NCBI GenBank assembly: GCA_041737595.1
Contig: JBGSRK010000017.1
Span: 1-29,837 of the forward strand
DNA: 29,837 bases
Direction: 5' to 3'
Source of the DNA: Patescibacteria group bacterium
GTDB taxonomy: Bacteria; Patescibacteriota; CPR2; UBA1875
The position numbers and the translations under genes were made by a program. The notes under the pieces were generated by a model. It was given only the letters and a program-made list of their open reading frames with translations, did not search any database and was not told the DNA's origin. Below, in pieces: positions 9,570-12,526 of the stretch (positions within the stretch are counted from its first letter, which is position 1; every line of letters begins with the position of its first letter).

Positions 9570-11333
9570 ATGAACTTAAAATCAAAAATTAAAGATCTGG
9601 CAGAAAATATTAATAAAGTATTTAATAAATTACAAAATACTCATCTTTCTGATTTACAATCTTTTTATCGGAAATTTTTAAAAAGAATTCCAGATATTTT
9701 TCATTTAAAAAATATAGTATTAATCGGTGGTGGAGCATCGCTTTTAATATTTATACTTTTTAACCAAAGGTTTGAATCGTTATATAATTATTTACCTAAA
9801 GAGCCAGTTTCTGGTGGTATTTATACTGAGGGGGTTGTGGGAGAAATAAATCAATTAAACCCTCTATTTTCACAAACTAGTTCGGCTGAAATTGTTGTTG
9901 ATAATCTAATATTTTCAGGTTTAACAAAAAAAAATAATAAAAAACAAATTATTCCTGATTTGGCCGAAAAATGGGTAATATCGACTGACGGTAAGGTCTA
10001 TACATTTACATTAAAAAATAATATTTTTTGGCATGATAAAGAGCCTGTTACAGTTGATGATATATTATTTACAATAGAAACAATCCAGAACCCTGACACA
10101 AGAACCCCTCTTCTTAAAATTTGGAGAGGTGTAACACCAAAAAAAATAGATGATAAAACAATCTCATTTACGCTCGAAGAGCCATATTCAGGGTTTCTAT
10201 CTAATACTGAAGTATTAATTTTACCAAAACATATATTAGCTGATGTTCCTGCAAAAAGTCTTAAAACCGCAGAATTTAGTAATACTCCGATAGGAACGGG
10301 CCCATATATTTTTGAAAAAATAAAAAACATTAGAGATTCTCAAGAGGTTACACTTCTTTCTAATAAGAATTATTATAATCAAACCCCTTATATTGAAAAG
10401 GTAATAATAAAAACATATAATAATTTTTCTGATTTACCGCCTGCTTATGCTAGAAGAGAGATATTAGGATTAGAAAAAATAAATGGGGAAGAAGTATCGT
10501 ACGAGAATGAACTCCCAAACGCTAATACTTACAATTTAGCTATCCCCGAAACAGATACATTATATTTTAATCTCAGATCCGGTGTTTCTAAAGAAAAATT
10601 TTTACGTGAAGCAATAGCACTATCGATACCTAGAGATGAAATTATAAAAAAAGTTTATAATAATGATGCAATGCCAATATTTGCACCAATATTAACTGGT
10701 TATGTTGGTTATAATTCAAAACTCAAACAAAACATAGATACAGAAGCAGCAAAAAAGAAAATTTTAGATGCTGGCTATACACTTGATGCTAATAATATGA
10801 TGATAAAAGACGGTGAAATCTTAACTGTAAGACTTGTTTGTCTTGATGAATATAACAAAGTATTCGAAGCAGAAATAATTAAAGAAAATCTTAAAAAAAT
10901 TGGGATAAATATTGAAATTGAAAAATACCCCCGTGCATCTTTTTTCCAGGAATATGTAAAAAATAGAAATTTTGATATTCTTTTAATTTCACAAAATCTT
11001 GGTTTTAATTCTGATATATATTCTTTTTGGCATTCAACTCAAGTTAACGACCCAGGTTTAAATTTCTCAGGTCTTTCAGACAGAAAAGTTGATAAATTTT
11101 TAGAACAAGCCAGAACAACCCTAGATATCGAAAAAAGAAAACAAAGATATCAAGATGTCCAACAAATTATATTGGATGAGGTAGCATCATTGCCTTTAGT
11201 TTGGCCAAATTATATTTATGCAGTTTCTAGGGAAGTAAAAGGAATTTCTAATATGAAGCTTTCGGATCCAAAATATAGATTCTGGAATATTGAAAAATGG
11301 TACATCTACGATAAAAAAGCAACAATACTTTAA
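9570..11333 (+). CDS. Peptide/nickel ABC transporter substrate-binding protein (SBP family 5), membrane-anchored
   Basis: LNPLF, IPDLAEKW, WHDKEPVTVDDILFT, PIGTGPY motifs; N-terminal hydrophobic segment; no permease or ATPase nearby. Confidence 0.92.
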   Translation: MNLKSKIKDLAENINKVFNKLQNTHLSDLQSFYRKFLKRIPDIFHLKNIVLIGGGASLLIFILFNQRFESLYNYLPKEPVSGGIYTEGVVGEINQLNPLFSQTSSAEIVVDNLIFSGLTKKNNKKQIIPDLAEKWVISTDGKVYTFTLKNNIFWHDKEPVTVDDILFTIETIQNPDTRTPLLKIWRGVTPKKIDDKTISFTLEEPYSGFLSNTEVLILPKHILADVPAKSLKTAEFSNTPIGTGPYIFEKIKNIRDSQEVTLLSNKNYYNQTPYIEKVIIKTYNNFSDLPPAYARREILGLEKINGEEVSYENELPNANTYNLAIPETDTLYFNLRSGVSKEKFLREAIALSIPRDEIIKKVYNNDAMPIFAPILTGYVGYNSKLKQNIDTEAAKKKILDAGYTLDANNMMIKDGEILTVRLVCLDEYNKVFEAEIIKENLKKIGINIEIEKYPRASFFQEYVKNRNFDILLISQNLGFNSDIYSFWHSTQVNDPGLNFSGLSDRKVDKFLEQARTTLDIEKRKQRYQDVQQIILDEVASLPLVWPNYIYAVSREVKGISNMKLSDPKYRFWNIEKWYIYDKKATIL

Positions 11334-11355
11334 TTTATTGATAATTATAGATAGA

Positions 11356-11384
11356 TTGACTTTTAACCTCTAAAAGAATATAAT
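11356..11384 (+). promoter_or_regulatory. Sigma70-type promoter of the tRNA operon
   Basis: TTGACT-17 nt-TATAAT. Confidence 0.75.
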
Positions 11385-11442
11385 TTGATTGTTCTTAATC
11401 CTCTGGCAAAGGATTTTTTGTTTCTTAACACATTTTTTAGCT

Positions 11443-11542
11443 CAATTGAAATCTGTAGATTTTAATTGTAGAGGAGGCATAGCGAAAGAGATAAGCATTC
11501 GAAATTATTTTTGATGTGAATCTCGCCAGCGAATGCTGACGA
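11443..11542 (+). ncRNA. Putative structured tRNA-leader element, copy A (unknown family)
   Basis: Hairpin CAATTGAAATC-TGTA-GATTTTAATTG, linker TAGAGGA, nested stems GGCAT/ATGCT, GAGAT/ATCTC, GCAT/ATGT, tail GACGA abutting tRNA-Leu. Confidence 0.6.
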
Positions 11543-11629
11543 GGGGACGTGGTGGAACTGGTAGACACGCAAGATTGAGGTTCTTGTGGCCGTAAGGCTG
11601 TGGAAGTTCGAGTCTTCTCGTCCCCACCA
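11543..11629 (+). tRNA. tRNA-Leu (GAG)
   Basis: Acceptor GGGGACG/CGTCCCC, anticodon arm CAAGA-TTGAGGT-TCTTG, long variable arm, GTTCGAG, encoded CCA. Confidence 0.97.
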
Positions 11630-11701
11630 TCTTCAGGCAAAAAAATGAAATAATTTAAGTCTATGAATATTTTTAGCGTAATCTTATAGAAAACCTGACA
11701 T

Positions 11702-11777
11702 GGCGAGATAGCTCAGTTGGTAGAGCGAAGGACTGAAAATCCTTGCGTCCCCGGTTCAAGTCCGGGTCTCGCCACCA
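11702..11777 (+). tRNA. tRNA-Phe (GAA)
   Basis: Acceptor GGCGAGA/TCTCGCC, AAGGA-CTGAAAA-TCCTT, GTTCAAG, CCA; 76 nt. Confidence 0.97.
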
Positions 11778-11852
11778 GTTAAAAGTTTGTTATAGGCTTA
11801 TTGCCCTTCACAACTTTTCATTAATAATCATAATCATCAGATTTTGATTGAC

Positions 11853-11951
11853 CCGGAAAAATTTATTAATTTTTTCGGAAAAGGAAGCGTAGCAAAAGTG
11901 GAAAGTACTTATCACAAATAATGTACGATTCACAATAGATTACGCTGACGC
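11853..11951 (+). ncRNA. Putative structured tRNA-leader element, copy B
   Basis: Hairpin CCGGAAAAATT-TATT-AATTTTTTCGG, linker AAAAGGA, stems AGCGT/ACGCT, GTGGA/TTCAC, GTAC/GTAC, tail GACGC abutting tRNA-Val. Confidence 0.62.
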
Positions 11952-12028
11952 GGGCGCTTAGCTCAGTTGGCTAGAGCATCTCGTTTACACCGAGAGGGTC
12001 AGGGGTTCGAATCCCTTAGCGCCCACCA
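11952..12028 (+). tRNA. tRNA-Val (TAC)
   Basis: Acceptor GGGCGCT/AGCGCCC, TCTCG-TTTACAC-CGAGA, GTTCGAA, CCA. Confidence 0.97.
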
Positions 12029-12090
12029 GTTTCAAGGCAAATTATTTGGTTATAAAAATTTTATTTTTTATGCCCTATACCATCTTTAAC

Positions 12091-12187
12091 CCGGAAAAAT
12101 CTGTTGATTTTTTCGGAAGAGGAGGAATTGTGTTAGGATAAAAATGTGCAACAGCATCATTGTAATCCGAAAACAAATTCTGATGAT
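12091..12187 (+). ncRNA. Putative structured tRNA-leader element, copy C
   Basis: Hairpin CCGGAAAAATC-TGTT-GATTTTTTCGG, linker AAGAGGA, stems GGAAT/ATTCT, GGAT/ATCC, AATG/CATT, TGC/GCA, tail GATGAT abutting tRNA-Gly. Confidence 0.62.
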
Positions 12188-12263
12188 GCGAGAGTAGTTC
12201 AGTGGCTAGAACGTCTCCTTGCCAAGGAGAAGGTCGGGGGTTCGACTCCCCTCTCTCGCTCCA
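12188..12263 (+). tRNA. tRNA-Gly (GCC)
   Basis: Acceptor GCGAGAG/CTCTCGC, TCTCC-TTGCCAA-GGAGA, U73 discriminator, CCA. Confidence 0.97.
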
Positions 12264-12297
12264 AAATTTTTTAGTAGGGGATGATTATCGACGTTTT

Positions 12298-12371
12298 GGC
12301 GTCGTGGCGGAGTGGTTACGCAGCGGTCTGCAAAACCGTTTACCCCGGTTCAATTCCGGGCGACGCCTCCA
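12298..12371 (+). tRNA. tRNA-Cys (GCA)
   Basis: Acceptor GGCGTCG/CGACGCC, GCGGT-CTGCAAA-ACCGT, U73, CCA; 74 nt. Confidence 0.97.
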
Positions 12372-12384
12372 AAATTTATATAAT

Positions 12385-12469
12385 GGGCCGGTGGCGGAAC
12401 TGGTATACGCGCTGGACTTAAAATCCAGTGACTTCGGTCTTGAGGGTTCGAGTCCCTCCCGGCCCACCA
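12385..12469 (+). tRNA. tRNA-Leu (TAA)
   Basis: Acceptor GGGCCGG/CCGGCCC, CTGGA-CTTAAAA-TCCAG, variable arm, CCA. Confidence 0.97.
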
Positions 12470-12475
12470 TCAATT

Positions 12476-12499
12476 AACTCACCAAAAGGTGAGTTTTTT
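12476..12499 (+). terminator. Intrinsic terminator of the tRNA operon
   Basis: AACTCACC-AAAA-GGTGAGTT followed by a T tract. Confidence 0.85.
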
Positions 12500-12526
12500 G
12501 CTTTTTTACTTAATATATTGTAAAAT
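12498..12526 (+). promoter_or_regulatory. Putative promoter for the fabK pair
   Basis: TTGCTT-17 nt-TAAAAT. Confidence 0.5.

Follow-up and report, generated by a model that had tools for sequence, protein, structure and literature searches.

Interspersed structured repeats are known from bacteria and from organelles, and these are the described systems closest to the elements considered here. The small intergenic repeats of bacteria are, according to the general properties given in parts of two accounts, short, multi-copy sequences that are co-transcribed and form stem-loops (PMC3184786; PMC10969869). Repetitive hairpin and double-hairpin elements invade the spacers of compact mitochondrial genomes, often 5' of tRNAs, and the portion of the literature dealing with them attributes no known adaptive function to them and discusses roles in RNA processing and in recombination or rearrangement (PMC2800124). 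Here we describe a family of structured elements of ~100 nucleotides (nt) found between positions 11443 and 12187 of a 29,837-nt stretch of DNA (hereafter the window, that is, the whole stretch analysed), contig JBGSRK010000017.1 of the Patescibacteria assembly GCA_041737595.1, where three copies precede tRNA genes. The family is undescribed and is related to the interspersed structured repeats of bacteria and organelles; a full-text literature search, with subscription journals outside its coverage, returned no tRNA-flanking structured repeat reported for Patescibacteria or the candidate phyla radiation. We interpret it as a new interspersed structured repeat placed at the boundaries of RNA units in streamlined genomes, with the copies of the window acting as pre-tRNA leaders that are removed by RNase P, an interpretation in which our confidence is about evenly balanced.

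[quoted passage not shown] Known families of the REP/BIME, ERIC, BOX and Correia type are scattered intergenically, often between convergent genes, and known bacterial repeats either consist of one palindrome or have terminal inverted repeats and duplicated targets, a transposase (RAYT or that of an insertion sequence) being known for several, whereas the present element combines two hairpins with a conserved, asymmetric linker and tail and is placed base-precisely at the ends of tRNA or transfer-messenger RNA (tmRNA) genes or at start codons. The mitochondrial elements are similar in that hairpins fill short spacers before tRNA genes, but they are organellar, have another sequence, also lie inside rRNA and protein genes and, in the part of the account that describes them, have no base-precise tRNA junction (PMC2800124).

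In the window, a sigma-70-type promoter (TTGACT-17 nt-TATAAT, 11/12 consensus matches, 11356-11384, + strand) and a terminator-like hairpin downstream (12476-12495, with its T run 12476-12505, + strand, recognised in the sequence) place the elements inside one tRNA operon. The tRNA genes were located with ARAGORN and structured RNA families were searched for with Rfam 15, and the six tRNAs of this operon were found by both. Element 1 (11443-11542, 100 nt), element 2 (11853-11951, 99 nt) and element 3 (12091-12187, 97 nt, with a tail, GAUGAU, that is 1 nt longer) are forward copies on the + strand that end at position -1 of tRNA-Leu(gag) (11543-11629), tRNA-Val(tac) (11952-12028) and tRNA-Gly(gcc) (12188-12263), respectively, all on the same strand. 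They score 81.2, 83 and 82.8 bits (the last for 12091-12186) with R1, a covariance model made from an alignment of the 14 forward copies of the focal genome (label G000), values that are high by construction as the three elements are among these 14 copies. Between the promoter and element 1 lies a plain leader of ~52 nt, an older leader that the window genome still keeps. By position and sequence the elements agree with pre-tRNA 5' leaders, since they lie between promoter and +1, on the tRNA strand, in a genome with an RNase P RNA (type A, contig C36, 219.7 bits; a second match on a 2-kb contig may be foreign). Transcription from the operon promoter would include the copies of the window in the pre-tRNA, from which the resident RNase P would remove them at +1, so that they would cost the tRNAs nothing.

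Each element folds alone into a hairpin P1 and a long, interrupted P2-P3-P4 hairpin, with energies of -32.1, -29.1 and -29.4 kcal/mol for elements 1, 2 and 3 and folding z scores of -4.65, -5.95 and -4.59 (0/200 shuffles were as stable). In the overall plan, an 11-base-pair (bp) P1 is joined by an AGGA linker to a long irregular hairpin, and a GACGN tail ends the element at tRNA +1. An earlier note on this DNA, made from the letters alone, had listed stems that are indeed present as written directly before tRNA-Leu, tRNA-Val and tRNA-Gly; its P1/P2/P3 architecture holds, but its single purine-rich internal loop has to be replaced by a 2-bp helix and a 4x4 purine loop following P2. In element 1, P1 corresponds to 11443-11453/11458-11468, the linker to 11469-11475, P2 to 11476-11480/11533-11537, the 2-bp helix to 11482-11483/11529-11530, the 4x4 loop to 11484-11487/11525-11528, P3 to 11488-11492/11520-11524, the apical hairpin to 11495-11517 and the tail to 11538-11542. 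Across the family, P2 is succeeded by the 2-bp helix, then by a 4x4 loop (G..A / G..A) and P3, and beyond P3 by a 3x3 purine loop and a tip that varies.

The proposal that these are covarying structured RNA elements was confirmed by compensatory changes, which RNAalifold recovered in 19/24 consensus pairs of the 14-copy alignment. In an alignment of 124 copies from 17 genomes (A6), fitted to the covariance model and thus leaning towards its structure, double-sided changes were present in 23/24 pairs and standard pairs occupied 94.0% of the pair cells compared with 67.2% in shuffled controls, while pairing dropped to 33-53% when partners were slid by 1-3 columns. The inner P1 stem is almost invariant in A6, with A-U pairs in 120-122/124 copies, and the same alignment shows the linker A-G-G-A in 119, 117, 121 and 124 and the tail G-A-C-G in 120, 122, 113 and 117 of the 124 copies, with a free base at -1 (U 67, A 40, C 15 and G 2). 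At the base of P2 the linker GA lies opposite the tail GA, beside a G-C pair (111/124), and this AGGA...GACG closure would be formed by tandem sheared G.A pairs and one G-C pair.

The facing GA dinucleotides at the P2 base and the CUGA in the tail recall kink-turn and box C/D motifs, and binding of an L7Ae-type protein had accordingly been suggested; however, there is neither a 3-nt bulge with the conserved G-A that follows it nor a C box, and a canonical kink-turn is not conserved because position -1 is variable. A kink-turn ribonucleoprotein was therefore discarded, as the post-bulge A is not conserved and the L7Ae family (PF01248) was found in 0/17 element-bearing genomes and 1/41 relatives, the control being positive in 7/14 named genomes. 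As had been predicted, the elements have no counterpart in Rfam: at gathering score only the six tRNAs matched in the window, and at E <= 10 a single weak match within 11300-12300 touched an element (sR51 C/D-box, 11510-11558, 16.4 versus 38 bits). Several further features were considered and rejected. Pairing of the P1 loop (UGUC) with the tail (GACG) in a pseudoknot finds no covariation, since loops UAUU and UAUA keep the same tail; positions -12 to -7, counted from the end of the tail, resemble a -10 box in none of the subtypes, which speaks against a promoter within the element; and an AUG follows AGGAGG, as a small open reading frame (ORF) would need, in just one subtype. Leader-trailer pairing around one tRNA is not general, as few tRNAs have both flanks occupied (Arg-tct in the focal genome), and in adjacent reverse and forward copies the variable stems are unrelated, so that only the conserved motifs could pair.

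The focal assembly (143 contigs, 1.09 Mb) has 44 ARAGORN tRNAs, some of them on contigs of foreign GC content, and inspection of the 110 nt before every tRNA revealed the same architecture at many. R1 yielded 19 strong matches (E <= 2.2e-8), 14 forward and 5 reverse. Twelve of the forward copies end at +1 of an ARAGORN tRNA, one at +1 of an interrupted tRNA and one at the 5' end of the tmRNA, and the reverse copies have their tails against the CCA of Thr-tgt, Thr-ggt, Arg-tct, Arg-gcg and Gly-ccc. Rather than being scattered regardless of tRNAs, 19/19 strong copies thus adjoin the end of a tRNA, a tmRNA or a gene resembling one, with no strong R1 match away from a tRNA-like gene in this genome. 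The Ser-gct and Ser-gga copies are 91% identical. Eroded copies are common, being represented by P1 only before tRNA-Trp and by degenerate copies before tRNA-Tyr and after tRNA-Phe. In the window, a degenerate reverse copy (11777-11850, - strand, 33.4 bits with R1; E = 0.004 in the whole-genome search and E = 0.0004 in the search of fetched loci) has its tail end against the CCA of tRNA-Phe(gaa) (11702-11777, + strand) and, together with element 2 that follows it, fills the Phe-Val spacer. The 72-nt spacer before tRNA-Phe (11630-11701, + strand) has no full element and no model match, and the tail-like CUGACAU at its 3' end, directly before the tRNA, is possibly an element remnant. The 62-nt spacer 12029-12090 contains at most a very weak reverse-copy remnant, as the minus-strand R1 match at 12023-12116 is not significant in the whole genome (23.3 bits, E = 0.33). 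As a side observation on this assembly, contigs C30 (67.5% GC), C118 (47% GC) and C90 deviate strongly in GC content from the main contigs (~33%) and carry a call for tRNA-SeC (selenocysteine), a second tRNA-His and the second RNase P RNA; they are probably contaminants of the bin.

By one protein, the nearest named relatives of the focal organism are 'Patescibacteria group bacterium UBA1875' and metagenome-assembled genomes of Candidatus Staskawiczbacteria. R1 matches were present in 17/41 relatives and matches of a refined covariance model (R2) in 17/32 genomes of the class, with 1-25 copies each, as well as in 13/151 genomes sampled across the phylum, including 6/143 outside the class, one of them with 23 copies. 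Neighbours were counted for 138 copies of at least 35 bits from the 17 class genomes, after dropping the two rows of locus L044 (duplicates of L029), and 16/138 neighbours were identified by eye, 4 of which Rfam supports (two tmRNAs and two cut tRNAs). The tail adjoins a tRNA 5' end in 71/138 copies, a tmRNA 5' end in 4/138 and, with the element reversed, a tRNA 3' end in 51/138; truncated tRNA pieces, acceptor-like minihelices or interrupted tRNAs account for 10/138, and an ORF and another copy for 1/138 each. The orientation towards the neighbour is constant, with the GACG(N) tail and the long hairpin beside the neighbouring unit and P1 distal, and the P1-proximal arrangement was seen in 0/126 copies that adjoin a tRNA or tmRNA. 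The earlier idea of a tRNA-linked RNA therefore stands, strictly so in the focal genome, whereas its restriction to 5' leaders fails on the 51 reversed copies. Metagenome contigs were scanned with a pattern of P1 and linker only, so that the neighbour had no influence on the search; of the 16 loci recovered, 12 have model matches. Among the 26 matches, 10 lie at tRNA 5' ends (8 placed by ARAGORN and 2 by eye), 8 are reversed at tRNA 3' ends, 2 precede another copy (three stand in tandem before one tRNA), 2 are cut by contig ends and 4 have an unexplained neighbour. Viral contigs gave 0 matches to a pattern of P1 and linker, which is strict, so that this result says little.

Some neighbours of the tail are worth recording in their own right. 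At loci L028, L040, L116 (G024), L102 (G010) and L111 (G016), an acceptor-like minihelix or a truncated tRNA 5' part lies between a forward copy and the real tRNA, in one case tandem-duplicated, and is followed by a short trailer resembling the head of a reverse copy. Small GIY-YIG nuclease ORFs occur inside tRNA arrays; at L034 (G006) an ORF of 88 amino acids (493-759; Pfam GIY-YIG, E = 1.3e-13) stands in the order copy, tRNA-Asp 5' fragment, GIY-YIG ORF, second copy and intact tRNA-Asp, and further ORFs of this kind were seen by eye in the focal genome on contigs C21 and C108, upstream of tRNA-Gln-ctg and tRNA-Glu-ttc, and in G015 (L062). In the focal genome, moreover, tRNA-Thr(cgt) is seemingly nested inside another tRNA-like gene (C67, ~108582-108770; L005 333-520). 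In the outer gene the acceptor stem and the D and T arms are intact, and a stem of ~13 bp that encloses the inner tRNA replaces the anticodon arm (RNAfold -70 kcal/mol for 188 nt); ARAGORN calls the inner tRNA only, and a forward element copy adjoins the outer +1.

Outside the class, the 38 copies of six genomes comprise 12 at tRNA 5' ends, 14 reversed at tRNA 3' ends, 2 that sit 69-144 nt before a tRNA and 10 that stand in their own sense directly before ORFs. These ten are intercistronic, with the start codon at -2 to +17 nt from the tail and, where the frame is readable, an upstream stop 0-10 nt before P1, so that the copy fills the intercistronic gap. A GGGAG-type Shine-Dalgarno sequence begins right at the tail in 5/10, and in the other 5/10 the start codon overlaps or touches the tail (offsets -2 to +1), the ORFs of the latter resembling, by eye only, MraZ, L23, L27 and two others (G093 and G073). 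The AGGAG, which comes to lie 5-7 nt from the start codon after folding of the long hairpin, may be a ribosome-binding site, a role that an otherwise inert module could take on wherever a start codon follows its tail. The MIRU of mycobacteria also lie between operon genes with downstream expression preserved, and their short ORFs are reported to overlap the flanking stop and start codons; the present element is like them in its intercistronic insertion and unlike them in its AGGAG, hairpin and 5-nt tail before the start and in that most copies flank tRNAs. Phage T7-type RNase III signals, in which an irregular, internally looped hairpin of ~60 nt precedes the next gene's ribosome-binding site, provide another parallel, since here too an irregular hairpin directly precedes a ribosome-binding site in polycistronic RNA, but P1, the conserved AGGA/GACG closure and the tRNA-flanking copies in both orientations belong to the element only. 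Taken together, the 51/138 reversed copies, the ORF contexts, the absence from sister genera and the presence or absence within one genus (both described below) and the partial copies imply that the element is not simply a tRNA leader.

The same observations bear on two explanations in which the RNA itself would be the product or the agent. It had been suggested that a cis-acting, self-cleaving processing ribozyme or a riboswitch-like leader sets or regulates the tRNA 5' end, and the many conserved unpaired nucleotides, the 3' end exactly at +1 and an alternative CGUCAG-N6-CUGACG hairpin, possible in many copies, would agree with this. Nevertheless, we judge this explanation very improbable, because start codons that overlap or touch the tail indicate that cleavage at the tail junction is not obligatory, as it would destroy the gene at the 5 ORF-adjacent copies concerned; moreover, reverse copies would be non-functional, the genome has an RNase P RNA and no Rfam ribozyme or riboswitch matched. 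The CUGANGA-like tail also varies (CCGACGC, CUGACGU and others), unlike a hammerhead core, whose CUGANGA and GAAA around three stems are invariant and which cleaves after UH, and the hammerhead was rejected on this variation (C/U at position 2 and C/U/A at the last position) and on the lack of an Rfam match. Likewise, a small-RNA gene, from which RNase P would release a stable trans-acting RNA of ~100 nt, for example one that titrates a GGA/Shine-Dalgarno-binding factor or the 30S subunit through AGGAG, would be difficult to reconcile with reversed copies (51/138) that would yield the complement, with ORF-adjacent copies that stay within the mRNA and with the absence of the family from sister genera. 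In its favour are a 3' end fixed at the RNase P site, a stable fold with z = -4.6 to -5.9, an invariant, single-stranded-looking AGGA(G) between two hairpins and the many copies per genome, which would raise the dose; we hold it to be improbable overall.

The strand on which the fold is maintained was assessed with the apical tip, which is unpaired in the model and hence unbiased, by folding it on both strands and counting G.U pairs; copies with an apical region <12 nt were skipped. Forward copies have 51/545 G.U pairs on their own strand against 11/448 on the complement (binomial p = 3e-7), and reverse copies have 21/405 on their own strand against 9/369 in the tRNA sense (p = 0.04), with their purine loops also retained on their own strand. 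The G.U bias in both orientations indicates that the fold is selected, or was inherited, on the element's own strand, and neither the counts nor the loops of reverse copies point to an adaptation to the transcript made from the tRNA operon. The conserved fold, namely P1, the AGGA...GACG closure, two purine-rich loops and a variable tip, would accordingly be a property of the element's own strand, and it could either keep the insert a self-contained, inert module or be needed for the propagation of the element.

These data also bear on the main rival to our interpretation, a module that serves the host as punctuation or insulator, whose rigid hairpin, standing directly at the RNase P site, the 3' processing site or the ribosome-binding site, would isolate the folding of the adjacent tRNA or mRNA start and may offer an entry for a double-strand-specific nuclease of the RNase III type that would cut polycistronic transcripts into units, and which would spread because it is useful. 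Such a module would explain why the tail faces the tRNA at either end, why the fold and AGGA/GACG are so deeply conserved, the bias of forward copies to G.U pairs on the transcribed strand, the copies before tmRNA in four genomes and the intercistronic copies in ribosomal-protein-like operons, and its hairpin helices survive reverse complementation, so that either orientation could serve. On the other hand, reverse copies lack a tRNA-sense G.U excess (9/369 versus a background of 11/448) and keep their opposite-strand loops, and helices alone would allow the P1-proximal arrangements that were never seen (0/126). This explanation appears possible, though on balance doubtful.

The position of the junctions provides further information. 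In G093, where most tRNA genes have no encoded CCA, 12/12 reverse copies begin 0-2 nt after the discriminator base N73, and those of the focal class have their start 0-1 nt past the encoded CCA; the junction therefore follows the encoded 3' processing site and not the mature CCA end, which again suits a host-serving punctuation module. It also argues against retro-copies of mature tRNAs, a scenario in which a reverse transcriptase switches templates or extends cDNA from a tRNA primer and so joins the 3' end of the element RNA to mature tRNA ends, the product then recombining into the genome. That scenario would predict what is found in so far as both sides have their junctions at RNA ends, in either orientation and with 0-1 nucleotide added, but the G093 copies follow N73 without CCA though mature tRNAs carry it, and RVT_1, found in 16/41 relatives, was not found in the seven copy-rich genomes G002, G006, G010, G016, G018, G020 and G022. 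Retro-copying hence seems hardly probable to us.

Comparison with relatives indicates that the elements are dispensable. Three sister genera of the same family (G001, G003 and G004; 84-91% complete) have no match with R1 or R2, and they share with the window the upstream gene, the promoter and the Leu-Phe-Val-Gly-Cys(-Leu) operon. These element-free operons have plain leaders of 38-76 nt, with spacers of 11 and 4 nt in G004, of 13, 4 and 9 nt in G001 and of 9, 39 and also 190 nt in G003. The occurrence of the same operon without the element in three sister genera means that tRNA maturation does not require it, which weakens the earlier suggestion of a leader controlling this process. It also weakens the case for a host-serving punctuation module, since the sister genera process the same tRNAs with short spacers and no element, only a changing subset of tRNAs carries copies, and copies erode. 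In a comparison with contigs from four DNA runs (likeness 85), the contigs of a relative in run X9 join tRNA ends 11629-11700 with 3 letters between and 12028-12188 with 16 letters, which is weak corroboration of an element-free operon in relatives and not of a strain polymorphism; in runs X1 and X2 contigs cover the window stretch piecewise, and no listed piece spans all of it.

Gain and loss can be followed at a finer scale in genus g11. In its Gly-tcc/Arg-tcg/His operon, a 203-nt spacer in G020 is made up of a reverse and a forward copy, and the spacer measures 15-16 nt in G010 and G016, where it ends in a tail-like GGACAUG or GCACAUG; in the Thr/Tyr/Thr operon such a pair (205 nt) is present in G010 and the spacer has 3 nt in G020. 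The order of the tRNA genes differs where the pair is present, with Arg-Gly-His versus Gly-Arg-His in the first operon (L035/L175/L174) and, for the pair-bearing genome and its congener, Thr(tgt)-Tyr-Thr(ggt) versus Thr(ggt)-Tyr-Thr(tgt) in the second (L021/L177). The Tyr copy of G002 is 89% identical to the Lys-ctt copy of the focal genome; in a partial sampling of genomes, the nearest relative of a copy lay at the same site of another genome in 3/64 sampled copies and in the same orientation class in 52/64. Judging by these sequence comparisons, turnover of the family by gain, loss and erosion runs on the time scale of genera.

Such multi-copy occurrence with presence and absence among close relatives is a MITE-like trait. 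A single copy has no terminal inverted repeats, the reverse and forward pair has inverted ends (CGUC... ...GACG), and this pair was gained or lost as a unit in the two g11 operons; in the focal genome, 14/19 copies are single forward units. REP/BIME with RAYT, imperfect palindromes of 20-40 nt that have a conserved 5' tetranucleotide and are accompanied by a Y1 transposase gene, was rejected because the present unit has ~100 nt and two hairpins and Y1_Tnp does not co-occur, this profile being found in 22/41 relatives but not in G002, G006, G010, G016, G018, G020, G022 or G024. Integron attC sites, each one imperfect inverted repeat that has RYYYAAC/GTTRRRY ends and stands behind its cassette in uniform orientation, were rejected too, as the alignments have no such ends and both orientations are found. 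A stem usually begins no more than a few bases after the tail, be it an acceptor stem on either strand, a minihelix or the P1 of another copy, and structure-directed placement would, speculatively, fit these neighbours.

A number of observations weigh against our interpretation as an interspersed repeat. The exact abutment tracks RNA processing sites, where a dedicated processing signal would look alike, and we know of no DNA transposition mechanism that explains it; the linker and tail are almost invariant across classes (113-124/124); the copy before tmRNA, in four genomes of two families, could mean long-term functional retention; and the G.U bias of forward copies amounts to selection on the transcribed strand. 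Besides, no mobilising enzyme was found with the RVT_1 and Y1_Tnp profiles, other transposase families including DDE lying outside that search, none of ~200 copies was a longer, ORF-carrying version, and the pair junctions that were read (A...T, T...T and A...ACGT) gave no consistent target-site duplication. A host-serving punctuation module does better on the exact junctions, and worse on dispensability, on turnover and on the own-strand signal that reverse copies carry; both readings could hold together. Going further, one may imagine a mobile unit without a transposase of its own that a mechanism directed by structure or RNA processing would place precisely at the feet of tRNA-like stems and at start codons, or else a bacterial punctuation signal for the border between one RNA unit and the next, read by a nuclease or RNA-binding protein. 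In both versions the fold closed by AGGA...GACG would be a new recognition motif of RNA, or of single-stranded DNA, common to Patescibacteria, but we consider this extension rather unlikely.

Few bacterial genomes are as small and compact as those of Patescibacteria, where one would not expect repeats to last. The family nevertheless places 10-25 copies of ~100 nt exactly at the boundaries of tRNAs, tmRNA and, in some classes, gene starts. This implies either base-precise insertion of DNA beside folded RNA genes by a so far undescribed route or a new accessory layer of pre-tRNA and operon processing. Additionally, it accounts for the unusually long tRNA spacers of element-bearing genomes and marks sites of tRNA-operon rearrangement, as both g11 operons compared differ in tRNA order. 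A covariance model is now available for this well-supported RNA/DNA structure family, which Rfam lacks, and annotators should check the opposite strand and relatives before calling 5' leader motifs regulatory RNAs.

The remaining features of the window operon are tRNA-Cys(gca) (12298-12371) and tRNA-Leu(taa) (12385-12469), both on the + strand and without an element. The genes flanking the operon encode a family-5 solute-binding protein and a nitronate-monooxygenase-like protein, neither of which is related to the elements. Elsewhere in the focal genome, on the minus strand of contig C54, a GC-rich stretch of ~105 nt that ends in CACCA lies between tRNA-Tyr (33443-33528) and tRNA-Thr-ggt (33248-33322) (L011), with no ARAGORN call and no Rfam match at E <= 0.01; many bacteria have a tRNA-Gly at the matching position. 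Finally, in the element-free genome G015 (L062), which has 8 Y1_Tnp matches, another repeat of ~30 nt with a short hairpin directly follows the 3' ends of three tRNAs (tRNA-Val, tRNA-Phe and tRNA-Leu-taa), and tRNA-flanking repeats may thus be a wider habit of these bacteria.

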